A stretch of DNA of 62,922 nt, filler included, from Dirinaria sp. TL-2023a (taxonomy: Eukaryota): the NCBI GenBank assembly GCA_051941275.1. It is 45 parts of 45 records of this genome, joined end to end, with 100 filler letters (N's around TTAATTAATTAA, not from the genome) between each part and the next. Parts side by side here need not be neighbours in the genome. Positions count along the whole stretch, not along the records: positions 53,346 to 54,632 come from JAVEBF010002839.1; 44 more parts are not named here. One strand, given 5' to 3'. Position 1 is the first letter of the stretch, and each line of letters opens with the position of its first letter. Shown in pieces: positions 2,850 to 54,732 of the stretch. The notes beneath the pieces are model-generated. The model had not been told where the DNA came from and did not search any database. It was given only the letters and a program-made list of their open reading frames with translations. Made by a program: the position numbers and the translations under genes.

Positions 2850-3800
2850 CAATGTATTCAAACGGGATGAAGTGGAAAAGAAGGGAATCACGGGCAGCGA
2901 AGTCCCGATCCCCTGCCGCATTCTACGCCTAGACGTTAGGTTCAAGCAAAATTTCGTTCTGCGAGCTGTTTTGATTTTTGAACATCGAAATCTCGACTTC
3001 ACGACCCAAATCCTCAGAACTCATGTGCAAGATGTTCTGATAATCCAGGTAAGCTGCTATGGGGTCTGCTTCTCCATGCTATTGCTGAAGAATAAGACCG
3101 GAGGATATCCCTCGCTAGGTGTTAGAGAATTCCTCAAACTCCTCTGCAAACATCGCGCCATGCAAGACGTCCCAATCCTATACTTCTCGGACCACGATAT
3201 TTACGGATTCGACATATATCACGTTTTAAAATTCGGATCCAGAGCCACGTCCTGGGCGTCCCCAACATTAATATGTCCCCGGTTGAGGTGGGCAGGTCCT
3301 ACCACAGAGACGCTGTTGGATACTGTGAGGACCACTGCCCTCACTAGAGCTAATGAGCCCCAATGGGCGGCATCAATGACGGCCAAGCTGCGTAATAGAA
3401 TGGCCAAGAAGGGTTTGACGACGGAAGGGCGAGTAAGACATCAGAACATGGTGAAGTCTGGGGTCCTTGAGGTGTCTGGAGAAGAAGAGGTAAGACGGGA
3501 GATCACGCGCATGGTGTATCAGAACGAGGTGAGTGTTTCAAGCTTTCGAAGGATAGCTCTAACAAGTCGTAGCAATTTTCGTTTCTAGATTTTACCTTGG
3601 TCCGTAGCCATGGGGCAGAACTGTACCCATTGGAGAGACTCGAACAGCTCGTCCAGCGAACAAGCATTGACCCAATCGTCAATACGGAACCGGCGATATC
3701 TCAGCGCACAAGGGATTTTGACCAGGCGGAACCGGAGTCAACTCCGGAACTCGCAACTCGCAATCTCGAAGCAGCGCTTGCTCTAGAAATGCCCCTGTAA
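2850..3800 (+). CDS. Divergent Spo11/Topo VI subunit A-like protein, TOPRIM domain, 5'-partial (exons 2850-3048, 3097-3528, 3573-3800)
   Basis: After removing two GT-AG introns: AVLIFEH...VLIIQTGGYPSLGVREFL...ILYFSDHDIYGFDIYHVLKFGS...CPRLRWAG. This follows the order of Spo11 motifs VEK, TGKGYP, DxD.G..I...YKYGS and P.L.WLG. Confidence 0.8.
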
Positions 3801-3955
3801 TACACTGGAGTGCAAAATTAAAGATTAGAATAGTAAACAAAAACGAATTGCTTTCGAAACTTCCCCCTTAAAAATCTCTGACCCTAGTGTCCGGCAGAAG
3901 GGGGCCCGATTCCGCCCGGGACGTTTTTTCATTGGGTCGGGTGCTTAGTCATTTC

Positions 3956-4171
3956 TGTTAGGACCGGTGCAGAGCAAGTCAATGCAGGTATAGTTAACTA
4001 AGGATATTATCACTAAGGAAGGAAGAAGGAAAACTAGATACAATAGGGGGTCCCAGGTATATATGCGTGTGTGCGGGTGTCGGGTAAACACCGCGATCGG
4101 GTTAGCGCATTACCCCTGAGAACCCTGGGAGGTGTTGCCCCAGGTAGTATACCAGGTGCATGCTCGTAACA
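3956..4171 (-). mobile_element. LTR family B, little mutated
   Basis: TGTTAGGACCGG...CTCGTAACA; same family at 26329, 45508, 50017 and 53494. Confidence 0.9.
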
Positions 4172-4272
4172 ANNNNNNNNNNNNNNNNNNNNNNNNNNNN
4201 NNNNNNNNNNNNNNNNTTAATTAATTAANNNNNNNNNNNNNNNNNNNNNNNNNNNNNNNNNNNNNNNNNNNN

Positions 4273-5594
4273 GACATATCTAGTCTCGACATCACTCAAT
4301 CGAAAAGAAATGAACATGAGAATTCTTTCATTGAGTAGAAATTTAGATGTTGCTTCAATTTCTGATTCAGTATTCTTTAATTGAAACAGACACTCTTCAA
4401 CTGTTTTCTCATTAGCATTCATCGCTAAATAATATTGCAGATTGAGATTTGAGTCACTCATGACATTCGTGATGATTGCTTGTTTCACTGTTTCGAAAAA
4501 AGTCTGCTGCTCTGATTCTCAATCAAAGATATTCTTTTTCACATAATGTCTTTGAACGAAGAGCTTGAGCTGAGTTCTCTTTTTCTTGACACTTTTGATT
4601 AGATCTTGATCACAATGCTCTATTTCGTCGTCATGAGATTTTTTTGATTTAGTTTTCATTGAAATCAGTTTCAAGTAGACCTTTTTCATTATTAGAACAT
4701 GGGCTGCTCTTTCGAGAATAAAAATTCGAAAAAACGAAGTCAATCACAGAAAGACATCGAGTTTCGCTCGATTCGTTGACACTGATCAATTTTCGATCTT
4801 CTGACGATGTTTCAAAAAAGAACGCAAGTCATTGAGATTTTTTTGAAATCTCAACATCTCTAAACTATTTGAAAAAACATGCGTTTTAGCATCTGATAAA
4901 TAAATCGACTCAAAAGCAACTCTTGAGAAATAACTTTCGTGTAAAAAGATGAACATTGCTTCAAAATCCCGTGCTGAAGCAGAATGATCGTTCATGTAAA
5001 TCTGAAATGCATGATTTTCGAAACGCTCAAATAATGTTGACATCTTCTCAATGCTCTCGATGTTGTTTGACAAAAGATCAAAAATAAGATCATCAAATTG
5101 AGAATACGTGTGCGATGCTCTTTTGAGTTTCTGTCTCATTCTCAGATAGACTCATTGATCATTTGAAATAAGAAAGTCTGTTTTGTTTTGATCTGAGAAT
5201 TTCATTGATATTGCTCAGTAAAAATTGAAGGCATTCGTCATGAAATAAACATCAAAGTCTGAAGCAATCAGAATGATGATTACTTTTTTCAGATGATATA
5301 CAGAGTAGATCGACTTGATAATGTATTTATTTATCGATATGAAATCGTGAATCACTCGAAGCAGAGACGAATCTTTCTTCTTTGATGAAAACTTAGTTCG
5401 ATGTTCTCAAGAGCTGTTTTTTCGTGCTATTATGTCGACTTCTTTCAGCTCTGAAAAAATGCGATTGACAAATTCTCTCTCTATCATAGTGTATTTGAGC
5501 AAGAAGTTAATGATCGATCTCGCATTTGATTTCAAATCAATAAAATATTCTATCAAATCTGTTGCTTTAATATTTCTAATACGAAGAGCGAAGC
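4273..5594 (-). mobile_element. Degraded Gypsy pol (RT-RNase H)
   Basis: Minus strand: RMRQKLKRASHTYSQF, IYMNDH (YxDD), SFRLSDVETRY; many stops. Confidence 0.8.
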
Positions 5595-7015: not shown

Positions 7016-7115
7016 NNNNNNNNNNNNNNNNNNNNNNNNNNNNNNNNNNNNNNNNNNNNTTAATTAATTAANNNNNNNNNNNNNNNNNNNNNNNNNNNNN
7101 NNNNNNNNNNNNNNN

Positions 7116-7954
7116 AGTGCATTTGCGACTTATTTGAAACTCGTTAAAAACCTCTCAACTCTGTAGAAATGAGAAAGAAAAAGAGTTCTCTGACGCATTC
7201 TAATACGGCGCTCTCTTTCAGTCGATGAATCTCAAAAACTCATAAAGACAAAAATAAACATCTGTCAGATAAATAATTTCGAATAATGTTTGTAAACATA
7301 TCTTCGTCGCGTGAGAAAAATCTTCATGACGTTGATATCGTGTAGATTTGTATTGTAGATAAACAAACTCATCTCGTAGTCATGATGAATAAAATCAGCG
7401 CGCATCGACGCTAAGACGATTAGTGAATAAACAATCATTATATATGTGTTTATTTTTCTGTTTCTTCTTTTTCTTCTTTTCTTTTCTTTTTACTCTGTTC
7501 TCAAAGGAGAACGCTGTTAATAGATCTAATATCAGTGCTTGAAGAGAAGTACTTATCAAAATGCTTTGAGAACAGAGTAAAAAGAAAAGAAAAGAAGAAG
7601 AAGAAGAAACAGAAAAATAAATACATATATGATGATTGTTTATTCACTAGTCGTTTTAGCGTCGATGCGCGCTGATTTTATTCATCATGACTACAAGATG
7701 AGTTTGTTTATTTACAATACAAATTTACACGATATCAACGTCATGAAGATCTTTCTCACGCGACGAAGATATGTTTACAAACATTATTCGAAATTATTTA
7801 TTTGACAGATGTCTATTTTTGTCTTTATGAGTTTTTGAGATTCATCGACTGAAAGAGAACGTCGTATTAGAATGCGTCAGAGAACTCTTTTTCTCTCTCA
7901 TTTTTACAGAATTGAGAGATTTTTAATGAGCTTCAAATAAGTCGCAAATGCACT
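7116..7954. repeat. Long inverted repeat (391-bp arms, 57-bp spacer) of the family D 3' internal region
   Basis: 7116-7506 is the reverse complement of 7564-7954 apart from scattered changes, mostly transitions. Confidence 0.95.
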
Positions 7955-7983
7955 GAAGATCAGTGCTCAGAAGAGAGAACAAA

Positions 7984-8395
7984 TATAACAGTGATATCTG
8001 ATACATTGATATATATTGATCAATGCAGACTAGCGCCGCTTGACAGTCGAAGATGCTCAGAGACAATTCTTCGAGATCTGAAGCATGACTAGCGCCGTCT
8101 AGAAGTCAGCGTCGAAAGATTGAATCTCGAGACTGACTAGAAGTCAGTGAGCAGTTGACGCTTATAGAGTATTGTGTCTACGAGCGCTCGTGACTCGTCA
8201 GCGCGAGGCTCGTCACGGTGAGGCAATGTTAACGCTCGCGGTTAAATATAGAGGATCACTCATCTTTTCGAAGAGGGTCCTTAGTGATTAGTTCTAGCAG
8301 GAACTACAGTATCAGGTAGTCATATAATCTATTACACTGTCACGTCTTTTACACAAGTACTGCGTCGACGGGTAATCGACGCATACGAACTTACA
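7984..8395 (+). mobile_element. LTR family D (3' LTR)
   Basis: Purine tract AGAAGAGAGAACAAA precedes TATAACA (mutated TGTAACA); ends CTTACA; matches 28615, 45199 and 62457. Confidence 0.9.
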
Positions 8396-8535
8396 CGAGC
8401 TTTTTGTAATAATCGACAAAGAAATTGAATCATGCNNNNNNNNNNNNNNNNNNNNNNNNNNNNNNNNNNNNNNNNNNNNTTAATTAATTAANNNNNNNNN
8501 NNNNNNNNNNNNNNNNNNNNNNNNNNNNNNNNNNN

Positions 8536-9954: not shown

Positions 9955-11272
9955 CGTACTCGATTTGCTTGATTTGAGCTCATCGAAACTGATCTTGAAG
10001 AAACTCTCGAAATTCGAAGAGTTTTTCAGCGTACACGTCGACACGACGCATCTGTTTTCGAATCAACGATGTTGCGTTTTCTGAGAACGATGTAATTGAT
10101 TCGAGATTCGATTTTGAGAAATAGTCTTTGATAGCAGGAAACGAAACAACACTCGTGAATTCACTCTGATGACTGTTGATCTCAAACTCGACGATGACGA
10201 GATGATCGACTCAATTGTTTTGCGTATGATTGACATAGACTCGAAGATATTATTTAAGAACAGCGTTGACATTTTCGATCTGTTTATCAGTCTTCGAATG
10301 AAACGCTGTTGAAAGTTTGAGAGTCGTTCTCAGACGTGCACACAGACGACGTCAAAAATGAGCGATAAATTAACGTTCGCGATTCGAGATAATTGAGATA
10401 AAATAATTTTTCTCGCGTTAGACAAAATCAATAAAGACTTGAACTACTGACTCAACTTTCAAAAAATTCAGCGAAATGAACTTTTTTTTCTTTGAGAGTC
10501 TGTCAATCACAATCATGATATGTTGAAATCATTTTTCGTGACGTTCACAAATTGACAAAATAGTAACAAAGTCGCAGAAAATACTTCGTCAATAACGATC
10601 TGAAATTGATAATGATTTCAATAACTCGTGTTTAATTTTTCGATATGTTTTGATGCGACGACAGATGTGACAAATCTTAACATATTATTTCACGAATTTG
10701 ATCATGTTCGATTAATAATAGTGTGAATGCAGTAATTGATATGTATTTTCGCGTTCTGAATGTCTCGCGAAAAAAGAATCATACATTTGTTTAATGATCG
10801 TTGTGTATAAACTTTTCTTGTTTGAGACGTATAATCGTTTCTAATAATAGAGCATATCGTTGCGAATCTCACAATCTGATAATTGTAACTTGTATTCGAT
10901 TTGTCGCAAATCATGAGAAATTTTGCGAGTTTCTGAGATTTTGATTTTCATAATTCGTTGCAGATCATCGTTTTTTTTGTAAATTCTGCGAATTTTCTAT
11001 TTCAATTCGATTGTCGTGAGAATGTTCTCGAGTATCTCATTGTTCGAGTTTGTCGTTTGCTCAGACTGAGCATCGACTAAATCATTGTCAACTAAAACTC
11101 AAATGTTCTCGTTCGCGATGACGACGTCGTAAATCATCGATGTTAATTGAGTGACGATGCTAAAACTGTTCTCGAGCATGACGTAAACTAGATCGAGAGT
11201 TTTTGTCATCTCTGACTTCAGATTAGTTTTTTTAAGAATCGTTTTGTTTTGAAATTGACGTCTTGAATCATT
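9955..11272 (-). mobile_element. Degraded Gypsy integrase region
   Basis: IVIDRLSK and STAFHSKTDKQIENVNAVLK*YLRVYVN, a mutated HPQTDGQTERVN motif. Confidence 0.8.
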
Positions 11273-11662: not shown

Positions 11663-11793
11663 TGTTACGACCCTGGAAACACCTAAGTAGTAAGATAGAC
11701 ACCAAGTCCTTTGACTTGGTTTAGTTAGTCTTTTGGCGCTGCCGTGACTTTTATCATTGGGAAACCTATCTAACCAAGGTTGGGTCTTTGACA
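11663..11793 (+). mobile_element. Solo LTR, family A
   Basis: TGTTACG...TTTGACA with TSD AACTC on both sides. Confidence 0.93.
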
Positions 11794-12061
11794 AACTCTA
11801 CAATGTTTGCATGCATCATTTTGTCGTGCGATCGCTGTTTGCTCGCGCACGCGATCGCAGAGTCAGAGAACAAATATCGTGGAATCAGACTTCAGAAACG
11901 AGAGTGACTCAGCACCTGATCCAATGGAAAAATCTCTCGAGCGGAATCGGATTCTTTTTTGTCTAACACTATAATTAGTCAGCGACTGACATTCGTAACT
12001 CATATTTCACTCTATCGAATTAGGTTTAGGATTCTCGAGTGTTTCTAAAAAAATCTAAAAA

Positions 12062-15520: not shown

Positions 15521-15818
15521 NNNNNNNNNNNNNNNNNNNNNNNNNNNNNNNNNNNNNNNNNNNNTTAATTAATTAANNNNNNNNNNNNNNNNNNNNNNNN
15601 NNNNNNNNNNNNNNNNNNNNGCATCATCAGCGTATAGATCGACAACTCATCATCTGTCAGTCTCTTTAAGAAACTTGCGTGCCGCGTCTAGACGATGTCT
15701 TTCATGCAGAACTTGTAGAGAGAACTTCGATACAAATCACCGCGATTCTTCAAAGATATTGATGTCGTCTTCGTCGCGACGGCTTGCTTCGATTAGAGCG
15801 GAACGAGATACTAGAGCA

Positions 15819-16276
15819 TGTCAAAGACCCAACCTTGGTTAGATAGGTTTCCCAATGGTAAAAGTCCCGGCAGCGCCAAAAGACTAACTAAACCAAGTCA
15901 AGGGACTTGGTGCCTATCTTACTACTTAGATGTTTCAGGGTCGTAACACTACTCGGATCCCTTTCTGAGCTTCGTCTCGAAGCTCAGCACTCAGGATGTG
16001 AGTAGGAGATTCGCCTTAAGTGAAAAGATTAAGTAGTCGCCTCGAGCTTAGATAAACTCTCAGTCACAAGTCCTCGCCGAAACAATTCTTTAAGCGTTCG
16101 GACGAAATCGAACTCAGAACTTTGCGATCGGATTGACTTGATTTAATGTCAAAGACTCAACCTTGATTAGATAGATTTCCCAATAATAAAAATCTCGGCA
16201 GCGCCAAAAGACTAACTAAATCAAGTCAAGGGACTTGATGCCTATCTTACTACTTAGGTGTTCCAGGGTCGTAATA
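15819..16276 (-). mobile_element. TRIM-1, short-internal subfamily (LTRs 15819-15948 and 16147-16276)
   Basis: Two 130-bp family A LTRs around a 198-bp non-coding internal region partly homologous to 27129-27383. Confidence 0.9.
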
Positions 16277-16284
16277 CTACTCAG

Positions 16285-25486: not shown

Positions 25487-26089
25487 TGCTGCATCGCGCT
25501 TCAATCGATATTTCTTAATAAGATCGAGTACTGCATTGTCGTCGTTGCGAACTCAATGCTTCAATTGATCGACAGTGTTGATGAAATTCGAAGAGTCTGC
25601 TTGATTTGTTCTCGAAGAGAGATCTTCTGATTCTTCTGACAGTATCGACACGCGGCGGTTTGTCGTCTTCTTTAATAGATCTTTCATCGTCTGAGACAGA
25701 TAGATCGCATCGTCAATGAGATCATTGACGATCGAGAAAATCTGAGTCTGAGTGAGCTGTGCTCGAGAGTCTGATATCTGTCTAGACATCCTGATTTCTA
25801 TAATTATAAGGTCTTTTATTGCGATTGCTTGATCTACTCGTGCAACGCCGACGAGTGCAAAGATAAGAGTGATAGTTAGTGTAATGTCAGAGTCTGCACA
25901 GCGCTCAATGACATATGAGTGCTAGTAGACTAGGACACTAACTATGAAGAAGAAAAGGAAAGGAAATCTATCTACAGAAAGACTCAAATAGGGACCCGAA
26001 GCAATATCGATTCGAGGGGACGCTGGGCCTGATCATGTGACCTGATCATGTGACCTGATCTAAGGTGCTCCAGGTCTAGATTCATGACA
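25487..26089 (-). mobile_element. Family E 5' LTR (25885-26089), PBS and gag start
   Basis: TG...CA LTR; same LTR-internal junction at ~40080-40210; partial copies at 36659-36704 and 49184-49247. Confidence 0.82.
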
Positions 26090-26328: not shown

Positions 26329-26789
26329 TGTTAGAACCGGTGCAGAGCTCAGGTCAATGCAGATATGATTAACTAAGGATATTATCACTAAGAAAAGAAG
26401 AAGAAGAAGGAAAACTAGATACAAGAGGAGGTCCCGGGTATATATGCGTGTGCGGGTGTCGGGTAAACACCTCGATCGGGTTAGCGCATTACCTCTGAGA
26501 ACCCTGAGAGATGTTGCCTCAGATAGTATATCAGATGCATGCTCGTAACACTATATCACTCTTCAACAAGTCATGTCCTCATGACTTCATACAAGTCTTA
26601 TTTCATTGTGTATTATAAGGCGTTTGTGAAGGTTTAATTATTCTAGCAATTCAGTTCATAATAAGAAGTTCTTGAAGATTCAATTTCTAGCGTTTGTACT
26701 CGATATAGCGACTTGTTCCCTTTCAAGTTTGTATTCTAATATTCTGATCAATAGATGTTGACTCTACATCGATGTTTTGTGTCTTTTGT
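26329..26789 (-). mobile_element. Family B 3' LTR (26329-26550) with PPT and upstream internal region
   Basis: Matches other B copies; minus-strand GAAGAGTGATATAG abuts the LTR. Confidence 0.82.
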
Positions 26790-26889: not shown

Positions 26890-28188
26890 AGAAAATTATC
26901 ATCAGTCGAACAGAACTACGACATACACGATAAGAAACTGTTAGCTATCGTAACATTTTTAAAAATATGAAGAGTATATGCAGAAGAAGTATCTGAACTT
27001 TGTCAAAGACCCAACCTTGGTTAGATAGGTTTCCCAATGGTAAAAGTCCCGGCACCGCCAAAAGACTAACTAAACCAAGTCGGAGACTTGATGCCTTATC
27101 TTACTACTTATGTTCCAGGATCGTAACATTATCTCGGTCCCTCGGCTTAGCTTCGTCTCGAAGCTAACGTTGAGAGAAGTAAGAGAATTCAAGACTCTGT
27201 AAAGAATGCTAGCTAATCAGAGTGACTCATGACGCTCAGAAATCAATGTACGTCTATCGAAACAAGTAATCGCCTCGAGTTTAGATAAGCTCTCAGCCGA
27301 CAGACCTCGCCGAAAAACAATCTTTCAAACGTTCGGACTGAGATTCGAACTCAGAATCTTGCGACCGTGTTGACTTGGTTTAATGTCAAAGACTCAACCT
27401 TGATTAGATAGATTTCCCAATGGTAAAAGTCCCGGCACCGCCAAAAGACTAACTAAACCAAGTCGGAGACTTGGTACCTATCTTACTACTTATGTTCCAG
27501 GATCGTAACAAACTTGAAATATTAACGAATCATAAGAACTTACTGCATTTTACAACGACGAAGCAGTTAAATCGAAGACAAATCAGATGATCGAAATTTC
27601 TTAAACAATATAAATTTATTATACGATACACATCAGAAAAAAACAATAATAGAGCGAACGTATTAAATCGACGAAACGACTATATGAAAAACAAAACGAA
27701 GTTCAATCACAACATATTAAAATTAAATTAAGATAAATTATTATTGATAAACAAAAGACAAGAATTAAATGCGACACTGCGCATATTTCGAGACGATCAA
27801 AAATAGTATCTTATACAGAGAGAGAAATTACAGATATCGACAAACAAAATTAAAGATTGCATTAAGAAATATCACGATGAGTCACTGCAGAAACATTCGA
27901 GAATATTCAAAACATTACAGTTTTTACGACAGAATTGTCCGTTTTCACACATGAGACAAAAAATCGAGACATACGTTAAACGATATTTTAGCTGTCAAAA
28001 GAATAAGCATGCGACTCATGCTAAGTACGAAGAATTGTAGTATCAAGAATCATCAACGATATTATAAAACGAAATCACGATGAACTTTATCATCAAATTA
28101 TCGAGATCAAAAAATTCAGCGACGAGAGAAATTTATGACTTTATATTGATAGTTGTGAATAAATTAACGAAGTACTCACATATTATAC
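26890..28188 (+). mobile_element. Degraded Gypsy RNase H-integrase, interrupted by TRIM-1
   Basis: EQNYDIHDKKLLAIV...EL|EILTNHKNL...LNRRQIR*; ITMNFIIKL...IVVNKLTKYSH. The frame is restored when the insert and one TSD are removed. Confidence 0.9.
27001..27510 (-). mobile_element. Complete TRIM-1 (510 bp)
   Basis: LTRs 27001-27128 and 27384-27510, 255-bp non-coding internal region, TSD AACTT. Confidence 0.96.
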
Positions 28189-36558: not shown

Positions 36559-36704
36559 NNNNNNNNNNNNNNNNNNNNNNNNNNNNNNNNNNNNNNNNNN
36601 NNTTAATTAATTAANNNNNNNNNNNNNNNNNNNNNNNNNNNNNNNNNNNNNNNNNNNNGATCATGTGACCTGACCTAAGGTGCTCCAGGTCTAGGTTTAT
36701 GACA

Positions 36705-37809
36705 GAGATTGAGAAAATTGTGAAACAGCGAAATCAGAAATATCTGATTAGGTGAAGAGAATGATCTACGAAAGATAACACGTGAAAATTATTTAGAAAT
36801 TTTGAAAACTGCTCAGAGACATTTCGAGAGTTTCGTCAGCGTCAGAGAGATCGCGAAAAAACTCGTCAATGATTTAAGTGTTTCATACGAAACTCGAGAG
36901 CGTAAAAAACTTGAGAAACGAAATCTTTTGTTTTATCTGGTCTTCTTTTTCTTCGATCTCAAAAATGTTTTTCGACTCGACGTTACTCAAATCTTTTAAT
37001 CGACGCAATCAATACTTTCGTTGTTTTTTTTTTACGAGTCAACTTAAGACGAATCTCGAGAATCTCGTCGTTCAGTTTCTCAGCATTCTTTATAATCTGA
37101 TTCATACTTTCGAAATCGAGAGCAAGATCGCATTTTCGATTCTTGCGATAATATTTTTCACATTTGAGAAACTGACGATTCATTTTACATGAGACGTCAT
37201 AAAAAATACAACACTGATAAAAACGCATGACGAATTGTGCAAAACAGTAACGACGATCGACGATGAGATTACGACGTTGAGTGAACGAGAGATTGAAAAA
37301 CATGATAAAAGAATAAATTTCGAGAACGAAATTTAGAGAAAAAAGAAATGATGTTACGACTCTGTGCTGAGACATATCTTATGTATGAAATTCTGAAACA
37401 CAGATACGTATCATGATCAAGATTATCAGAACTTTTAAGACTTAAACGAGCTAGCGAAAATCACGTGAGCAGATCAATAGAATTAAGATGATCAGAGTTT
37501 GAGCAGTTTAATATAGCTTGAGCAGATCAAAAGAATCAAAATAATTAGAGCTTGAGCAGCTTGATGTAACTTGAGTATTTAGCGCGAAAGAATCAGTATA
37601 TAAATCTTCAACACGACGTTTTTCTGACATCGTGTTCAACATCTTTGCAATAATCATTTACTGCTCAGTGTAACTTGTATCTTGTTGTGATACTTGCTTT
37701 ATCACGTTGACACTCGTTGTTCTAAGACTTGAATCTCTTCGAACAGATTAAACTCTAGCATCTTATATTAGACATCTGAAACCCTAGATTAATAGTAGAA
37801 GACGCAACA
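36705..37809 (+). mobile_element. Chromovirus 3' end: chromodomain, antisense ORF, PPT, LTR-C (37352-37809)
   Basis: EIEKIVKQRNQKYLIR*RE*STKDNT*K is a chromodomain with TGA at Trp; purine tract before TGTTACG. Confidence 0.85.
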
Positions 37810-38229
37810 TAATTCAGAGATTCAAATTGAAAAACTCGATATAATGATAAAAAATTGAAAAAACGAAAGAAATAATGTGATAATAACAAATTCATTATGA
37901 TTACGCGTAACAAACGCATCGATTTCAATTTTATATTTATTTCAATTTTTTNNNNNNNNNNNNNNNNNNNNNNNNNNNNNNNNNNNNNNNNNNNNTTAAT
38001 TAATTAANNNNNNNNNNNNNNNNNNNNNNNNNNNNNNNNNNNNNNNNNNNNAAGCGCTTTCCCACCCACCCACTCCAGATATCGGTCGCATAGGTAGAGG
38101 GAGTTGTTGGCGCTAGGGGCAGCATGTTTTAAGGTCGTGTTTTCGTTTGCTTGCTTGCTAGATAGACGCCTCTGGCGCCGACGAGGCCCAAATCCAGTTC
38201 ACTCGTTTGTGCCTATATTTGCTAGTCCC

Positions 38230-39343
38230 ATGAGGCATCGAAAGCACTTCGCTGTGATTTATCTTTATGCGATAGTTTGAGAAACAGAGACGCATCATGA
38301 TCAAGAAGACGTATCTTTTTGACTTTTGAACTTGATGATCACGTGATCAGTTCAAGTAGTTCAAGAGAATCTGATGTTTAGACATCTTGATCAGTTCAAA
38401 TAGTTTAAGAGAATCTGATGCTTGAATATCTTGAGCACTTAGCGTAGAAAGATTACTATATAGATCTTCAACACGACGCTTTTTTGACATCGTGTTCAAT
38501 CTCAGTTAACTTGTTTAGTACTGTTACAAGTATTAAGTATCTATCTTGTGTGATACTTGCCCTATCACGTTGACACTCGTTGCTTCTGAACTGAATCTCT
38601 CCAACAGACCAAACTCTAGCATCTCTTATTAGATACCTGGAAACCTAGATTGATAGTAGAAGACGCAACACAGATATGAGGGGGAAAGTAGTCTATGAGT
38701 GCTGAGGAACCTATATATAGGCATTAGTGATAACACTAGTGATCTAGGTGTTGAACCCCTGAACCCCTAACACTAGTGATCTAGGTGTAGAGGACCCCTA
38801 AACCCCTAAACACGAGTATTGAATTCTAAACCCGTGACATCATCTCCTTTTTTAGAATCGAGGCTCCGACGATGATTCTAGAAACTTGATTTTCTAACAA
38901 TTGCACTTTGTAAATCGCATGTTGTTGACTCATAGAAAGCTTTCGCGATAAAATATGAGATATCTTTTGTAGTCGATTTGCTGTGTGATATGAGATGTTT
39001 TTTGTAGTAAACTTATTGTATGATATGTTTCTTCAAATTCGACACTTCTACGATGATTTTAAAAATCGTCATCGTCATCGTCGTCGTCGTCGTCGTCGAT
39101 GCTATTGTCGTCATAGATATCGTTTCTCGTTTCGTTCTATAGATATTCTTTTTTTTTATTTGAATACTCTTTCTCGTTGTTCGAGTCTTGCTTATTTTCT
39201 TGATCTGAATGCTCTTTCTCATATTGATTTTTTTCTTTTGAGATAGCTCTCTCATCGCTCGACTTTTCTTTCTCGTTTGAATCTTTCTCATCTTTTGAGT
39301 ATTTCTCTTCTTCTAAGTATTCTGACTCATCGTTTAAGTAGTT
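38230..39343. mobile_element. LTR-C copy (ending 38670) next to another LTR (ending 38839) with PPT and degraded internal region
   Basis: GACGCAACA end; AAACCCGTGACA end shared with LTR-F; pyrimidine tract after 38839. Left boundary approximate. Confidence 0.65.
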
Positions 39344-39444: not shown

Positions 39445-39934
39445 TTAGATAGGTTTCCCAATGGTAAAAGTCCCGGCACGGCCAAAAGACGAACTAAACC
39501 AAGTCAGCGACTTGGTGCCTATCTTACTACTTATGTTCCAGGATCGTAACATTACCCCGGTCCCTCGGCCTAGCTTCGTCCCGAAGCTAGCGTTGAGAGA
39601 AATGAGAGGGATTCAAGACCCTGTAGAGAGTGCTAGCTAACCAGAGTGACTCATGACGCTCAGGAATCAATGTACGCCTATCGGAACAAGTAATCGCCCC
39701 GAGCTTAGATAAGCTCTCAGCCGACAGGCCTCGCCGAAAAACAACCCTTCAAGCGTCCGGGCTGAGATTCGAACTCAGAACCTTGCGACCGTGTTGACTT
39801 GGTTTAATGTCAAAGACCCAACCTTGATTAGATAGGTTTCCCAATGGTAAAAGTCCCGGCACGGCCAAAAGACTAACTAAACCAAGTCAGCGACTTGGTG
39901 CCTATCTTACTACTTATGTTCCAGGATCGTAACA
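39445..39934 (-). mobile_element. TRIM-1, least-mutated copy (left LTR cut by contig edge)
   Basis: LTR end 39551, internal 39552-39807, LTR 39808-39934; colinear with 27001-27510. Confidence 0.94.
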
Positions 39935-40737
39935 GTTTAAAACATGGTCTCTTCGTCAATTGAAAAATTAACGATGAAAAAAATCCGAGTTTTTGTTATC
40001 GATGCTCGAGAATTTAATATTTGTTTAAATATCGTGATCTTATATCGTAAATCTTTTTATTATGAGATTTTTAATCTTGCAATTGCTTGATTTACTCGTG
40101 CAACGTCGACGAGTGCAAAGATAAAAATAATAAATAATGTAATATCAGAGTCTGCACAGCACTCAATGACATATGAGTACAATAAACTAAAACACTATTT
40201 ATGAAAAAGAAAAGAAAAGAAAATTTATTTATAAACAGATTTATTTGTGAAATCGAAACAACATCGACTCGAGAACGCTAAATTTAATCAGACAAAAACA
40301 CAACATCTTTAACAAAGTATTTGATATAGACCTTTCCGCACACATATGTGATATTCAGAGGCTCTGCTTCAAGATTCAGGAGATCATTTGATCTAGTCAT
40401 GTGATTAGGTTCATAAGGGTCTGAATCATAACATCTTCAAAGAAACATTTTATATAATTTTTTCAAAAATCATTTTTTGAGACAACGTTAACTGACTCTG
40501 AAAAATTCTTATTGACTTGACAAATCTTCGAAGGAATCTTGTTCTAACAGTAACGAGGACGTTGTTTGTTGGAGAAAGAGGATAGTGTTACGAGTATGTA
40601 TTTGGACTTGGTAGATTTGGTGTGGTGGTACTAGTTTTACCCTATTGGATATAGGGTCCCGGGTGGTCAGTCGGCCCGCCTTAGGGTCCCAATACACACA
40701 CAACTATTTAGGCCCCCTATTGTATCTAGCTTTCCTT
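39935..40737. mobile_element. Degraded family E 5' end, and a B-related 3' LTR starting at 40586 after a PPT
   Basis: 40080-40210 aligns to 25822-25950; GGAGAAAGAGGATAG|TGTTACGAG. Confidence 0.7.
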
Positions 40738-45014: not shown

Positions 45015-45081
45015 AGTCTTTTGGCGCTGCCGGGACTTTTACCATTGGGAAACCTATCTAACCAAGGTTGGGTCTTTGACA
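45015..45081 (+). mobile_element. Partial LTR-A in the family D 3' internal region
   Basis: Ends GGGTCTTTGACA; the following sequence matches 7867 onward. Confidence 0.88.
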
Positions 45082-45198: not shown

Positions 45199-45996
45199 TG
45201 TAACAGTAATATCTGATATATTGATATATATTAATCAATGCAGACTAGCGCCGCTTAATAGTCGAAGATGCTTAGAGATAATTCTTCGAGATTTAAAGTA
45301 TGACAAACATCGTCTAGAAGTCAGCGTCGAAAGATTAAATCTCGAGACTGACTAAAAGTCAGTGAGCAGTTGACGCTTATAGAGTATTGTGTCTACGAGC
45401 GCTCGTGATTCGTCAGCGCGGAACTCGTCACGATGAGATAATGTTAACGCTCGCGATTAAGTATAGATGTCAGGGATCTAGGCTGCATAGATAGATATGA
45501 TATTGACTGTTAGAACCGGTGCAGAGCAAGTCAATGCAGGTATAGTTAACTAAGGTATTATCACTAAGGAAGGAAAGAAGAAGAAGAGAAGCTAGATACA
45601 ATGGGGGTCCCAGATATATACGCGTGCGGATGTCGCGTACCCCGATCGGGTTAGCGCATTACCCCTGAGAACCCTGGGAGGTGTTGCCCCAGGTAGTATA
45701 CCAGGTGCATGCTCGTAACATTGACGAGAATACTAGCTATACAGAACTAAGATACATGGGGGCGAGGTTTAAGTAGAAACCTCGTCCGCTAGCGCTCCCG
45801 AGGCTCCTCCGAGGGAGCTCCAACACTATCGCACTAAACCCGTGACAATAGAGAATTATTTACTCTTTCGAAGAGAGGTTCTTAGTGATTAATTCTAGCA
45901 GAAAATACAGTATCAGATAGTCATATAATCTATTACACTGCCACGTCTTTCACATAAATACTACGCCGGCGGGTAATCGGCGCATACGACCTTATA
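45199..45996 (+). mobile_element. LTR-D containing solo LTR-F (45468-45847), which contains solo LTR-B (45508-45720)
   Basis: TSD ATAGA around F, TSD TTGAC around B; D resumes colinearly afterwards. Confidence 0.93.
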
Positions 45997-47694: not shown

Positions 47695-49247
47695 ANNNNN
47701 NNNNNNNNNNNNNNNNNNNNNNNNNNNNNNNNNNNNNNNTTAATTAATTAANNNNNNNNNNNNNNNNNNNNNNNNNNNNNNNNNNNNNNNNNNNNAGGAT
47801 ACACAGAACACACTGAGGCTTTTAAAACAGACTGGTAACTATTTTGGGTGGATCTCTTATCTATCTTGTGTAAAGTTCTTTGCGAAATCCACATTTTTTT
47901 GCGCTTAATCTACCGAGCATACTGGCGTACATGGACGATGCTATTTCACGTTCTCCATCAGTACGATTTGTTTGCTAGTCAATAACCATATCAGCGTGAA
48001 CAGCACCTAGTCTTGCATAACTTGAAATATGTTTCGGGCCAAGTTTTCGAACTAAAAAAATCAAAGGCTTGATCAGAAACACCTCTCGTCCTTCCCAAGC
48101 ACTCGATAAGATTGGCTTATGTCTTGATATTAAAAGGCAATATGCCGTAATGAGATAGCAATCACCCAAACTCCATATAAACCAGTCAACCGAAGGTAAT
48201 TAGCACTCACTCAACTAAGCATCAGCTAGCATAGTGGAGTTCATGTGTTGCTGACACAATATATACGATAAAAAAGAATGCAAGTGCATGAAACGCGAAT
48301 ACAGAAAATATATCCCTTACTACCCGGCTTGACACTTCACCACAGTAAATTCATTTCTCAATGGGATCTAAAATGGTTGGAAAAAGGGCTGGGGGAAAGA
48401 ATCTCAAAAAGAAACAAACCAAACACCACCCCCCTTCCTCCCTTGTTCCTCCAGCAAAGCCTGCCTGATATCTAAAGCAGCCAGCCAGCCACCTATACCA
48501 CAAACTCTCTGAATCATCCTCGCGAACATATCTTCCAATCAAAATATCCATTCCATTCCCCCCCGGTGTTTGTTCCTACCAAGGTCAAAAAAGACACCGT
48601 CTTCCCTCTCCTTTCTTTTTTCTACCCTGTTTTCTACAACATCTCATTCGCCCCCGCCCCCAATATTCTTCTACAATACTTCCCCCTTCTTATCCATAAT
48701 ATGAAAATTCAGATCAAGAAACACATTTCTCTATACATGGTATATAACCCCTGCCTGGAAATCTCAAAAACCAATCTACCTCCTTTTGCATAATCCACAT
48801 TTATTTCCATTCGTCCCTCAATTTCCAGAATCAATTCCACATACACATACATTCAGGTTCTCTTCTACCAAGGAAAATAGGTTTTTGCACTTGAGAATGT
48901 TTCGTCTCTTCTCTCTTCTCTTCTATCTTTAATTTTTTTTTTCTTGTCTTCGCCTTCCGTTCTGATTTGAAAATGATATATACTGACATAGCTGGCAGGC
49001 AGGCAGGCCGGCAGGGCCCAGCTCGACGAAACAATAAGTCAGGAGTCTGTTCCCACTGCAGGCGCACGTAGTTAGTTAGTTGGNNNNNNNNNNNNNNNNN
49101 NNNNNNNNNNNNNNNNNNNNNNNNNNNTTAATTAATTAANNNNNNNNNNNNNNNNNNNNNNNNNNNNNNNNNNNNNNNNNNNNTTCATAGATAGTGTCCT
49201 ACTCTATTCGTACCCATATGCCATTGAGCGCTGTGCAGACCCTACCA

Positions 49248-50016
49248 TTGTCGCTCACACAGCATCGTTTCTCGAATTTTGAACAATATCGACAAAGACG
49301 CATTACGATGACGCTGTTTTTTAAAAAATGAACGCGAGCACGACGACGAATGAAAAAAAACATAGAGATCATGTTCTCGAAACGAGAACTTGAGAGAGAG
49401 AAAATGATATTACGAGTCAGACTGACGTGATTTTATATACGCACTCAGTCGAATCAGAAAACATGTTAAATCGATGTTTATGACGTCAAAATTATTGAGC
49501 AGTGACTGATAAAGCTCGACATTATGAGCAGAGTGAGCAGCGACTCATGAAACTCGACATGATGAGCAGAATGAGCAGAGATGCTTAAGATGCTCAGACA
49601 ATTGAGTTTCATGATGCTCAGAGTGTTACGACCCTGGAACGCCTAAGTAGTAAGATAGGCACCAAGTCCCTTGACTTGGTTTAGTTAGTCTTTTGGCGCT
49701 GCCGGGACTTTTACCATTGGGAAACCTATCTAACCAAGGTTGGGTCTTTGACACAGAGTACTTAGATGATTGAGCATCGTGAGCATAAGAGATCTCATTG
49801 TATATATAGATCTTCAACACGACGTTTTTTTAGCATCGTGTTCAACATCTTTGCAATAGCTATTTACTGCTCAGAGTAACTTGTATCTTGTTATAATATT
49901 GTTATATTATCTCGAAGACATTCGTTGTTTCTTGACAGATCTCTTCAACAGATCAAACCCTAGCATCTTTTCTGTTTAGGACCTAATCCTAGATATTAGA
50001 TCGATAGGACGCAACA
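49248..50016 (+). mobile_element. Chromovirus 3' end: antisense ORF start, PPT, LTR-C (49408-50016) holding solo LTR-A (49624-49753)
   Basis: GAGAGAGAGAAAATGA purine tract; TSD CAGAG around LTR-A; the right flank continues as LTR-B (50017-50220). Confidence 0.88.
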
Positions 50017-51958
50017 CAGAGCAAGTCAATGCAGATATAGTTTACTAAGATATTATCACTAAGGAAGGAAGAAGAAGGAAAACTAGATACAATAGGGGGT
50101 CCCGGGTATATATGCGTGTGTGCGGGTGTCGGATAAACACCCCGGTCGGGATAGCGCATTACCCCTGAGAACCCTGAGAGGTGTTGCCCCAGGTAGTATA
50201 CCAGGTGCATGCTCGTAACAACATTCGTGAGACTCTCGAAAATTGAGTCGAATATCAATGACATCGCGCGAAACTCGAGATTCGCATTTATTTCAAAATG
50301 AACGAGTCGAAAAAAAATTTCGTTGATTTTAACGATCGTCGATTGATTCGATGTGCGAAAACTCTGTTAACGTCCAAGAAAAAAAAGATTAACAAATTTT
50401 TCGCACATCGAGTTGATCGAGATCGTGCATGATCGATCGAATTCGCGTCGAATTTCGTGCGAAAAAAAAAANNNNNNNNNNNNNNNNNNNNNNNNNNNNN
50501 NNNNNNNNNNNNNNNTTAATTAATTAANNNNNNNNNNNNNNNNNNNNNNNNNNNNNNNNNNNNNNNNNNNNTTATGATAGATGTCAAGATAGATAGATTT
50601 AAACTCACAATCAAAATAATTTTCGTAGAATGTGCGCTATTTAGAGAACAATTGATGATAGATTATAAGATTAAGAGGATAAGTCAAATCAAAAGCAGCT
50701 TCAGAAGCCACATTATCGAGGGTTTTTGATTATTTTAATGACACGGAAACATCACTCGCACTATTCAAGAGCTCGTGTTTGAAAAGAGGAAATAAGAACA
50801 GATACAGATACACGAGAATGATTGCATGATTTGTCAGATTCTCTTGATGTCTATCATTCGATACTCATTTTCAAAGACATTCAGAAAATACAGTCGTGGC
50901 GACATCTACAATGAGAACGATGTTTTTCGCAATCACAGAAGCATCCTCAATTGGACTCGTCTAAGTAGTACTTAAATAACAGCGTCTTTACCAATTTCAC
51001 GGGTTTCTGAAAAACTGTAATCAGAAAATTAAACTCAATAGGCATCTTATCTTGCATAACTCATACAAGCTTGTTGAAATTTCTATAAGAGTCTACACGA
51101 TGTCTAAATCCTGGACTTTTTCACTCTTTGATTGCTTCAATTCTATGGAGACATGTGAGTTGCATGAATGAGATGTACTTGCAGAAGTTGAACCCTTAAC
51201 CAAAAATTTCAGGTTGTCTCTTCACATGATGTCCTTGCATCCTGTACGGCAAAACCCAAGAACGGAGATCAGAAAAAAAGGACACTGAGCTGTGTGTGAA
51301 AATGGTAATTTACAGTCTCCTTCCTTCCCTCTGAATCTATATATATCATTTGGCGCTGCTCCCTAACTCTATTCTTTAGGGGTTATGTTGTTGCATTCTC
51401 TCTTGCTGCAGTCTTCAGCCTTTTCTACAATGCGTCACCCGCGGCGGCATGCGCCGCGAGTACGATATCGATAGTAATTCGTGCAATGACTGTCTTGTCT
51501 CTTGATGCTGTTCTTGCTGTGTGTTAGTACAGGAAGAGAAAGAGGCGAGAGAAAGAGAGCGCTTGCAAGGTGATGAACAAGGATACATTAGCCATCAGGA
51601 AATGAGTTACGTGCCTCAGTAGTATGTGGAAGGTTACTTTTGCTTGCAATACTAGTCGATTACTATATAGGAATAAATGGCCTTAACTTTATTTACTAAG
51701 ATGATCTTCCGATATCTGTACTTTTTCGCAGAGCCATTTTGATGTATTTCCAATTTCCAGAAGTGGTTCGGGTCGCCTTGGGAGAACTCGCTGGGACAGC
51801 ATTCCTCCCGGCCAGCAGTTGACATTCTGCCACGACGGTACTCTGAACGAGTACTCTCNNNNNNNNNNNNNNNNNNNNNNNNNNNNNNNNNNNNNNNNNN
51901 NNTTAATTAATTAANNNNNNNNNNNNNNNNNNNNNNNNNNNNNNNNNNNNNNNNNNNN

Positions 51959-53245: not shown

Positions 53246-53345
53246 NNNNNNNNNNNNNNNNNNNNNNNNNNNNNNNNNNNNNNNNNNNNTTAATTAATTA
53301 ANNNNNNNNNNNNNNNNNNNNNNNNNNNNNNNNNNNNNNNNNNNN

Positions 53346-53969
53346 ATCGTAATGCGTCTCTGTCGATATTGTTCAAAATTCGAGAAACGATGCTGTGTGA
53401 GCGACGATGCGAAAAAATGCGTCGAATGTATTCGTCAGACAATCTCGTGCGATCTGATCTCTCTTAACGTGACGAAATGAAAAAGATTGAAAATGTTAGA
53501 ATCGATGCAGAGCAAGTCAATGCAGATATAGTTAACTAAGAATATTATCACTAAGAAAGAAAAGAAGAAGAAGAGAAGCTAGATACAATGAGGATTTCAG
53601 ATATATACGCGTGCGGATGTCGCGTATCCCGATCGAGTTAGCGCATTATCTCTGAGAATTCTGAGAGATGTTGCCTCAGATAATATATCAGATGCATGCT
53701 CGTAACAGAAAACACAACGAAGAAAGTTGAAACAAGAGCTGCGCGAGACATATGTCAAACAGCAACGTCTGATGAAACAGCTTAATCTGATTGAAGAGCA
53801 ACAACAGATGATAGTCAAGAATGAATATCGAAATATCGCGACGTTAAAGAATAAAAAGAAAACGATTCAAAGAAATTTTATCTTTGATTTTTTCGAGATG
53901 TCTGCTTCAGATTCTCTGATTGACGTCGCGTCGAAGCAATTAATTTTTCTCGATTTTGATGACAATTGA
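53346..53969 (+). pseudogene. Zn(II)2Cys6 + coiled-coil ORF antisense to a chromovirus, split by solo LTR-B (53494-53707, TSD GAAAA)
   Basis: CRYCSKFEKRCCVSDDAKKCVECIRQTISC fits C-x2-C-x6-C-x8-C-x2-C-x6-C. Confidence 0.8.
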
Positions 53970-53989
53970 TCGTTTATCTCTCTTGCTCT

Positions 53990-54632
53990 CTTTAATAAAA
54001 TTCTCACAAAAGATTCTGACAGTTTTTAAGATTCTTAAATGATTTTCACGTGTTGTTTTTCGTAGATCATTCTTTTTATTTAACAAAATATTTCTGATCT
54101 CTCTGTTTCAGTATTTTTTCGATTTCGAATTCGTTTTTCTTTTGTGATTCGAAAGAAAAGATGTTCTGTATAAACGTACTGAGATCGACTGATTTTAATA
54201 ACGATATATGAAATACATTGTAAATTCGTGCGTTTTTTAACAATTTCAGTTCAAACGTTATCGATTCTTTGACTCGTTTAATGAAAAATGATCCGATCTT
54301 AACATGATTAAGTTTTTTGCTTGATTTTCTAATTTTTAGATTTTTGATCAACAAATAGATTTTATCTCTTTTTTTCAGTTGAGATGTCATTTTTCTTTTT
54401 TTGTTTTGATAACAGAATGATCGATTCTGCATTTTAACGATGTTTTCATGTATTTTTCTAAATGTTTCGACTCTTTTTTTCGTCGCATTCGTAAACACGT
54501 TTGTTTTCTGATGTTCGAATAAATCTGATTCTCTGTCATAATTCGCAAAGAATGAAATCGTTTTCGTAATATCGAAATGCTTTGAGTTGAGTGTCAATTG
54601 TATCATAAATAACAACGATATTCAATTACTAT
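53990..54632 (-). mobile_element. Degraded Gypsy integrase C-terminus and chromodomain
   Basis: SKKLNHVKIGSF (GPF motif), VFHISLLK, EFEIEKILKQRDQKYFVK. Confidence 0.9.
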
Positions 54633-54732
54633 NNNNNNNNNNNNNNNNNNNNNNNNNNNNNNNNNNNNNNNNNNNNTTAATTAATTAANNNNNNNNNNNN
54701 NNNNNNNNNNNNNNNNNNNNNNNNNNNNNNNN

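Follow-up and report, generated by a model that had tools for sequence, protein, structure and literature searches.

The window analysed here is a stretch of 62,922 nucleotides, filler included, from Dirinaria sp. TL-2023a (GenBank assembly GCA_051941275.1). It contains three copies (A, B and C) of a short open reading frame (ORF) that belongs to a long terminal repeat (LTR) retrotransposon, a Ty3/Gypsy chromovirus, and lies on the strand opposite to pol, next to the 3' LTR. The window is made up of 45 separate contigs of 1277–1325 bp each, ordered by falling length, and the joins between them are artificial 100-bp linkers (N44-TTAATTAATTAA-N44, e.g. at 53246-53345 and 54633-54732). Linkage of features was counted within one contig only. 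Each ORF copy sits on its own contig, and the three are therefore independent, in agreement with the original prediction, according to which the ORF is seen three times. GC content by contig was 32–40% in transposable element (TE)-like contigs and approximately 50% in gene-like ones. The following features were annotated on the three contigs.

53346-54632: contig A.
53352..53493, + strand: zinc-cluster part of copy A, beginning at an internal Met.
53494..53707, + strand: solo LTR inside copy A, 214 bp, TGTTAG...GTAACA, with GAAAA target-site duplication (TSD) at 53489-53493 / 53708-53712.
53708..53969, + strand: coiled-coil and C-terminal tail part of copy A, with stop TGA at 53967-53969, colinear with homologues across the joint.
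53992..54630, - strand: chromovirus pol 3' end, with Tf2-1-like integrase SH3 domain and chromodomain.
49184-50471: contig B.
49246..49372, - strand: copy B, first 42 codons, with ATG at 49372.
49392..50016, + strand: polypurine tract (PPT, 49392-49404) and the LTR named LTR-C (49408-50016), which is broken by a ~150-bp short repeat (49603-49753).
36659-37951: contig C.
36660..36872, + strand: chromodomain end of pol, with 80.5% DNA identity to contig A at 36705-36817.
36983..37303, - strand: copy C, an open 106-codon ORF of a diverged 97-aa subfamily (relatives P0033, P0034, P0037 and P0038).
37335..37809, + strand: PPT (37335-37348) and 3' LTR (LTR-C).

Copy A reads M-R-L-C-x2-C-x6-C-x8-C-x2-C-x6-C from 53352, with the cysteine cluster at 53361-53450 (+). 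The contig end removes about 25 N-terminal codons, so the copy begins at an internal Met. When all six frames of the whole window were searched with the general Zn2Cys6 pattern (C-x2-C-x6-C-x5-12-C-x2-C-x6-8-C), copy A was the sole match, and none was obtained in 200 per-contig shuffles; the exact spacing reported by the original prediction was thereby upheld. That prediction had also described the cluster and the following coiled coil as one open frame converging on integrase and chromodomain. The convergence was confirmed, but the single open frame was not: copy A holds an in-frame TGA (53478-53480) and is split by the 214-bp solo LTR. LTR and duplication together amount to 219 nt (3 x 73 nt), so the frame reads through the insertion. 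The reading of copy A as one ORF split by an insertion is confirmed by the homologues described below, which have Trp at the place of the TGA and run straight across the joint. Further copies of the 214-bp family were located at 3956-4171, 26329-26550, 45508-45720 (TSD TTGAC) and 50017-50220. They were classified as solo LTRs because two copies have perfect 5-bp TSDs (GAAAA and TTGAC).

Copy C retains Cys at four of the six positions and Tyr at the other two, together with the Asp-Leu that follows the cluster, and it is the diverged homologue with two Cys>Tyr changes that had been proposed for this position. Copy B shares 64 bp (20 codons) with copy A at 96.9% identity. It ends at 49246, after the third Cys, at the edge of another repeat that is also present at 25883-25948 and 40147-40205. 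Decay resembling repeat-induced point mutation (RIP), with G>A and C>T changes, has turned Trp codons of the pol frame into TGA or TAA and Cys codons of the ORF into Tyr. All three window copies are dead: each is decayed in this RIP-like manner, one carries the solo-LTR insertion and one is truncated.

In the window the chromovirus is visible by its 3' end only, and both pol 3' ends present (2/2, contigs A and C) have a convergent antisense ORF. On contig A, the SH3 domain scored 31.4 bits (cutoff 30) and Chromo, with X at stops, 16.3 bits (below the 25.1 cutoff). Trp codons of this pol frame have been converted to stops by G>A, and between the first non-Trp stop (TAA, 53992-53994) and that of the antisense ORF there are 22 nt. 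On contig C, the pol frame ends with TGA at 36870-36872, and 110 nt lie between this codon and the stop of the convergent ORF. Contigs B and C are colinear on the upstream side of the ORF, where a purine run precedes the ~450-bp LTR-C with TG...CA ends. On contig C, LTR-C begins with TGTTACG (37352) or TGTG (37363), a TATA box is located near 37598, and the LTR ends with GACGCAACA at 37809. Both LTR boundaries were set with a further copy in unrelated flanks:

38253..38670, + strand: LTR-C copy, TGTG...GCAACA.

The ATG of the ORF is 48 nt from 37352 on contig C and 35 nt from the LTR start on contig B. These distances agree with the approximately 45 bp proposed earlier for copy B, although its ATG lies at 49372 and not at 49363.

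A phmmer search with a 42-aa peptide against 1.84 billion representative proteins yielded 7 matches at E ≤ 1e-3, six of which were colinear homologues. The seventh, a Cys-rich repeat protein, was dropped. The six homologues and the window pieces were then used as input of a profile search, which drew 942 candidates and retained 34 proteins of 65–220 aa at E ≤ 0.01. None of them had a precomputed Pfam domain; all were unnamed save one 'hypothetical protein', and they represented clusters of 1–6 members from ENA, JGI, NCBI and Logan assemblies. A word-indexed search of the 42-aa peptide against longer proteins returned no match, and the same type of search with P0035 added only 2 further proteins. 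In the ESM Atlas, P0025 adjoins 30 Pfam-less clusters of hypothetical proteins, which we regard as a lead; the three displayed have 62–122 members each, mostly from Ascomycota.

From the homologues, the ORF starts 23–26 codons upstream of the Met of 'MRxC', with a basic stretch in between. This start agrees with the one set earlier for copy C and places the ATG of copy B at 49372. In a 30-row family alignment covering about eight subfamilies, the six Cys positions were among the best-conserved columns: two were invariant, three more were at least 90% conserved, and the remaining (fifth) Cys reads Tyr in decayed copies. The Met-Arg that precedes the first Cys and the Leu at the second position past the last Cys were likewise at least 90% conserved. 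In a few members, Cys2 and Cys3 are separated by 7–9 residues. Most subfamilies have in common a heptad-like helix and an acidic-hydrophobic motif at the C-terminus; the 97-aa subfamily of copy C does not have the acidic motif. When compared by eye, the N-terminal read-through of P0005 and P0008 mirrored the PPT of contig B and the antisense of its U3 repeats, so the ORF is linked to the LTR in the source records of these proteins as well. Judged by these alignments, the antisense ORF is a real protein family.

For the carrier element, metagenome contigs were scanned with one subfamily, which gave 140 relatives, and 80 loci were kept. Every one of the 81 ORF matches that reached 150 aa was accompanied on the other strand by the integrase SH3 domain and chromodomain, with an overlap of 98–119 nt at the 3' end of the ORF. 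Where at least 5.3 kb of downstream sequence was available, 35 of 45 loci also had integrase H2C2, reverse transcriptase (RT) and gag-CCHC in order, with a piece without Pfam match between gag and RT; the remaining 10 were interrupted or truncated. Domain scores in related loci were 72 bits for RVT_1, 48 for Integrase_H2C2, 62 for SH3_Tf2-1 and 61 for Chromo, and zf-CCHC (20.3 bits) was just below its 20.8 cutoff. An LTR pair was present in 25/25 long loci tested (~375 bp, 89.5–97.9% identical, ~6.1 kb apart). The end of the nearer LTR preceded the ATG by 45–47 nt in 21 of these and by 44, 37, 36 and 16 nt in the remaining four. From domain order and LTR pairs, the element is therefore about 6.5 kb long and organised as 5' LTR-gag-pol (RT, integrase, chromodomain)-antisense ORF-PPT-3' LTR. 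In one undecayed locus (L001; 1080 bp, GC 0.51) both convergent frames are intact, and Chromo and SH3 score 61.3 and 61.9 bits, respectively.

With an LTR pair, PPT, gag, RT, integrase and C-terminal chromodomain in one orientation, the carrier is a Ty3/Gypsy chromovirus. The ORF belongs to this element, in which it lies antisense between the end of pol and the PPT and has been inherited across diverged subfamilies. The proposed placement between chromodomain and 3' LTR was thus borne out in the window and in the metagenome, where LTR pairs reach 97.9% identity, and the linkage to Gypsy pol for which a check had been suggested was found in every metagenome copy. The attribution to chromoviruses in general was too broad and applies to one clade. 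When the family proteins were compared with the 80 loci by tblastn, 85/85 match intervals belonged to the main subfamily, and a second zinc-cluster ORF subfamily was not found in these loci. The antisense ORF is therefore a trait of a clade and not general to chromoviruses, because one subfamily only was matched though other Gypsy elements are present. These include Gypsy RT and integrase of a second kind with more distant matches (L054:2766-8577; L036:2328-3542), the RT being ~38% identical to the carrier RT (L036-type query) and the integrase match ~28%. One such stretch, in L054, is flanked by a pair of 136-bp direct repeats that are 5.7 kb apart and may represent its LTRs.

Some further features of the loci were recorded. 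The convergent overlap of the metagenome subfamily (L001:569-687) is in the same place in the other 79 loci; contigs A and C have gaps of 22 and 110 nt instead. In this subfamily, the DNA for the pol tail past the chromodomain carries, on its other strand, the conserved acidic motif from the C-terminus of the antisense ORF. Two family elements lie close together in L023 (tail to tail, 7670-8486 and 10001-10907) and in L074 (tandem, 3464-4370 and 7025-7931). The ORF match of the second L023 copy is only 44% identical, and its pol pieces are 70–91% identical.

An origin of the ORF by chance or as an assembly artefact would be in keeping with the very short, decayed and repeat-rich contigs of the window and with the mere 64 bp that copies A and B share. 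It is refuted by the 34 database homologues, the 140 metagenome relatives and the constant context in all 81 copies, and with no motif in the shuffles it is scarcely credible. A passenger role was also considered, in which part of a host zinc-cluster gene was picked up by an ancestral element and is carried along by later copies, to whose life cycle it does not contribute. LTR elements are known to transduce genes (described in excerpted parts of PMC11963269), and genuine host Zn_clus genes occur near elements in the fetched loci, such as the host-type ORF at L042:2-781 (-), which scores 40.3 bits and is ~1.8 kb from an element copy. Against this, start, stop, six Cys and heptad helix are kept though amino-acid identity falls to 25–45% across at least 7 subfamilies, which is unexpected for a functionless insert. 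The ORF is moreover never missing from the 81 copies, and phmmer, profile and word-indexed searches found no close host protein. We consider the passenger explanation improbable.

The coding frame was assessed from nucleotide identity by codon position. In the zinc-cluster frame, identity between subfamilies (A, C and the metagenome loci L001 and L002) was 0.42–0.51 at position 1, 0.48–0.67 at position 2 and 0.27–0.38 at position 3, while the two window subfamilies and the one metagenome subfamily have only 25–39% amino-acid identity. For copy A versus L001/L002, the same alignment was obtained when it was guided by the opposite-strand frame. That frame showed the wrong pattern (0.36–0.37 at position 1 and 0.48 at position 3) and a lower amino-acid identity than the zinc-cluster frame (0.28–0.29 versus 0.36–0.39). 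Codon-position pattern and conserved cysteines together favour the zinc-cluster frame as the coding one.

Several observations weigh against a coding function of this frame. It is open in only 2/80 aligned metagenome copies, and in none of the window copies by that count; the other aligned metagenome copies have 1–5 stops, mostly at Trp, Gln or Arg codons, and none has an indel. Variation within the subfamily is almost wholly of RIP type, and transversion sites in the non-overlapping part numbered 6 at the first, 6 at the second and 10 at the third codon position, too few to show selection. The codon-position pattern of copy C varies with the alignment used. Finally, in many copies much of the ORF is also free of stops in the codon-aligned pol-sense frame. 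This last point leads to the alternative that the true coding frame is the pol-sense ORF, which would extend pol at its 3' end or stand as an ORF of its own, and that the zinc-cluster frame is its mirror image. Pol-sense frames of 130–182 codons are open over the same DNA in many loci (e.g. L054:9935-10402, -), including the undecayed L001 (106-651, -), and such a frame is open in window contig C (36878-37192, +). However, the pol-sense frame has no Pfam family match, is closed by zinc-frame TCA codons near nt 405, 456 and 459, and even under its own guide is less conserved at codon position 1 than at position 3 (0.36 versus 0.48, copy A versus L001). Amino-acid identity in this comparison is 0.28, as opposed to 0.39 in the zinc-cluster frame, and it is cysteines at canonical spacing that are conserved best in the family. 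Opposite K/E/Q-rich helices, moreover, the antisense frame would tend to remain open. A coding pol-sense frame is accordingly judged very unlikely, and the zinc-cluster frame is taken as the coding one below.

Structure prediction was performed with AlphaFold2 on P0025 using the 30-row alignment. The resulting metal-free model had a mean predicted local distance difference test (pLDDT) score of 78 and a predicted template modelling (pTM) score of 0.49. It comprises a weak helix (8-20), the two short helices of the Cys module (32-36 and 51-56, pLDDT ~85–90), a single helix of ~70 residues (63-133, pLDDT 94–99) and a short helix (137-146). The predicted layout of the protein is a short basic N-terminal helix, a six-Cys module, a coiled-coil-like helix of ~70 residues and, in most subfamilies, an acidic-hydrophobic C-terminal motif. 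Foldseek against the PDB returned 26 matches, and 19/19 of those listed were Zn2Cys6 proteins, all of them weak (E ≥ 0.46): PPR1 (E 0.46), Pho7, GAL4, HAP1, PUT3, LEU3, AlcR, a CBF3 subunit and 1cld, the last of which we take to be LAC9. In a second look with VIA, PPR1 aligned over 55 residues, comprising cluster, linker and helix, with Z 4.8 and a root-mean-square deviation (rmsd) of 3.6 Å, which is weak (Z<5); 1cld was also a weak match, with Z 2.7 and rmsd 2.0 Å over 33/33 residues. A viral structure library returned unrelated helical proteins only.

The remaining comparisons do not establish membership in the Zn2Cys6 class. Foldseek gave no PDB match at E ≤ 0.001, and a sequence-profile search of the PDB gave nothing significant (LEU3 at E 3.9). 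Window peptides had no match to Pfam Zn_clus (PF00172) at E ≤ 1. Among the family members, 14/30 matched when E was allowed to reach 1, with 0.024 as the lowest value, but none attained the 21-bit cutoff; P0006 had the best score, 13.2 bits, and P0003 scored 12.3 bits. The host ORF of L042, with its 40.3 bits, served as positive control, and hhalign against this genuine Zn_clus protein gave a probability of 0.7%. The comparison with PF00172 advised by the original prediction was hence negative, since neither a window peptide nor a family member reached the cutoff. Of its proposal of a Gal4-type binuclear cluster, the spacing, the predicted Cys knot with long helix and the (weak) Zn2Cys6 neighbours in the PDB remain, whereas the family score of 13.2 against 21 bits does not agree. 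The protein is called Zn2Cys6-like here because spacing and predicted fold fit but the family model does not reach it. Like Gal4, Ppr1, Put3, Hap1 and Leu3-type factors, the model has the six-Cys spacing, two short helices after each C-x2-C and, next to these, a potentially dimerising helix. It differs from such factors in its size (~100–200 aa), in having no middle homology region, in being encoded by a retrotransposon, and in its scores, which are below the Pfam cutoff and structurally weak (E ≥ 0.46, Z ≤ 4.8).

On balance, we think it probable that an ascomycete Ty3/Gypsy chromovirus clade carries a fourth, antisense gene that encodes a dimeric Gal4-type DNA-binding regulator of ~100–200 aa. 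The antisense mRNA would start in the 3' LTR, at a promoter that is either antisense or bidirectional, given that the ATG is only 35–48 nt (mostly PPT) away from the LTR. A near-palindromic TATA element, potentially usable from both strands, is present in the LTR of the metagenome subfamily. The protein would dimerise through its long helix, bind DNA as Gal4-type factors do, and regulate transcription, most likely that of the element's own LTR.

As a possible target, TGAGCA was counted 72 times in the window (38 ± 6 expected) and is clustered in the U3 of LTR-C. The following clusters were located.

2021-2092: TGAGCA cluster.
37466-37558: TGAGCA cluster.
49496-49620: TGAGCA cluster.
49771-49785: TGAGCA cluster.

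The LTR of the metagenome subfamily is unrelated-looking, yet its U3 has TGAGCA/TGCTCA repeats at the matching place, with CCGAG/CGAGCG forms in the undecayed L001. The TGAGCA-type repeat may thus be a candidate cis element common to both subfamilies examined. Two points tell against the regulator: the usual half-site of the Zn2Cys6 class is CGG, a triplet that TGAGCA does not contain, and transcription, zinc and DNA binding, and dimerisation are steps that we infer. A more specific and more doubtful version, to which we give tentative credence only, is a retrovirus-style circuit. In this circuit a bidirectional LTR would produce the antisense mRNA of a minimal Gal4-type factor, consisting of zinc cluster, dimerising helix and acidic tail, which would bind the U3 repeats (TGAGCA / CCGAGCG-type) and switch the element's transcription, and solo LTRs could switch neighbouring host genes.

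Acidic-hydrophobic tails mark activation domains, and the acidic tail of the protein would favour a role as activator. The main rival to the activator is a repressor role like that of HBZ of human T-cell leukaemia virus type 1 (HTLV-1), in which the protein would regulate negatively, or be the dominant-negative partner of zinc-cluster factors of the host, and so damp sense transcription or limit copy number. This role would be consistent with the placement antisense by the 3' LTR, which is the same as for HBZ (excerpted parts of PMC11963269), and with the 97-aa subfamily including copy C, which does not have the acidic C-terminal motif; the antisense RNA would in addition be the complement of the genomic RNA at its 3' end. 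The acidic-hydrophobic tail after the helix is conserved in most subfamilies, however, and we rate the repressor as unlikely. A targeting or tethering factor was considered as well, which would attach to specific genomic DNA and bring in the integration complex, alongside the chromodomain. What points to it is the predicted DNA-binding architecture and the position by the integrase C-terminus, and we hold it to be slightly less credible still than a coding pol-sense frame. The transcriptional regulator described above is retained as the preferred reading.

A short repeat of ~130–150 bp is present on many contigs of the window, sometimes twice per contig ~380 bp apart, and one copy interrupts LTR-C in contig B as listed above. 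tRNA and Rfam scans of the window were empty, and the repeats could therefore not be typed as short interspersed nuclear elements (SINEs). The copies are listed below.

49603-49753: short repeat copy (in LTR-C, contig B).
66-218: short repeat copy.
11663-11800: short repeat copy.
15812-15950: short repeat copy.
16147-16278: short repeat copy.
27000-27128: short repeat copy.
27384-27511: short repeat copy.
39445-39551: short repeat copy.
39808-39937: short repeat copy.
45015-45081: short repeat copy.

To our knowledge, accessory genes are rare in LTR retrotransposons, and antisense ones have been described in plant Tat-lineage elements and deltaretroviruses. HBZ is a basic leucine zipper (bZIP) protein, with a DNA-binding basic region and a dimerising helix, a pairing that is predicted for the present ORF product as well. 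The ORF described here lies on the opposite strand, between pol and 3' LTR, in most copies and in diverged lineages, and so is an antisense accessory ORF. According to excerpted parts of PMC11963269, the plant Tat-lineage elements Retand, Grande (maize) and RIRE2 (rice) have antisense ORFs (aORFs) between pol and 3' LTR which, like the present ORF, are on the strand opposite to gag-pol, occur in most copies and in distant relatives, and encode predicted DNA-binding regulators. The same parts describe these plant elements as non-chromoviruses with 2.9–6.6 kb from pol to LTR, ORFs of >600 bp and mostly the plant-only TRP28 domain. In contrast, the ascomycete chromovirus ORF measures 0.3–0.6 kb, fills the whole space from pol to PPT, overlaps pol in one subfamily and encodes a Zn2Cys6-like protein. 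A Pfam scan of six members gave no TRP28 (PF04195), bZIP or other family at cutoff, and in a scan of 30 members TRP28 and bZIP were absent from the first member's table and from the 25 most-matched families listed. HBZ, too, is a small nuclear-factor-like protein encoded antisense beside the 3' LTR of a retroelement (excerpted parts of PMC11963269). It differs in being a bZIP protein and not a six-Cys cluster protein, in having no homology to the ORF product and in the kingdom of its host; its transcription and function have been demonstrated, whereas the present ORF is known from sequence. The likeness to plant aORFs and HBZ is one of position and likely role, not of ancestry. A full-text literature search found no antisense or zinc-cluster ORF in fungal LTR elements; Repbase reports and subscription journals were outside its scope, and an earlier description is possible. 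The review 'LTR Retrotransposons in Fungi' mentions, in its excerpted text, only chromodomains and complex nested elements (PMC3248453). An antisense gene in fungal chromoviruses thus appears to be undescribed so far.

A conserved antisense gene of this kind would give a name and a genomic context to unnamed 'hypothetical proteins' of Ascomycota for which there is no Pfam model. As far as we know, the Zn2Cys6 DNA-binding fold is largely restricted to fungi. If the proposed regulator is real, retrotransposons outside plants and animals would also have evolved regulators of their own. If the circuit with U3 repeats were true as well, it would be a fungal counterpart of Tax/HBZ, a mobile transcription factor travelling with its own binding sites. 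The element would then spread both the transcription factor and its candidate sites, and its solo LTRs would scatter such sites, which would bear on how TE bursts rewire fungal gene regulation.

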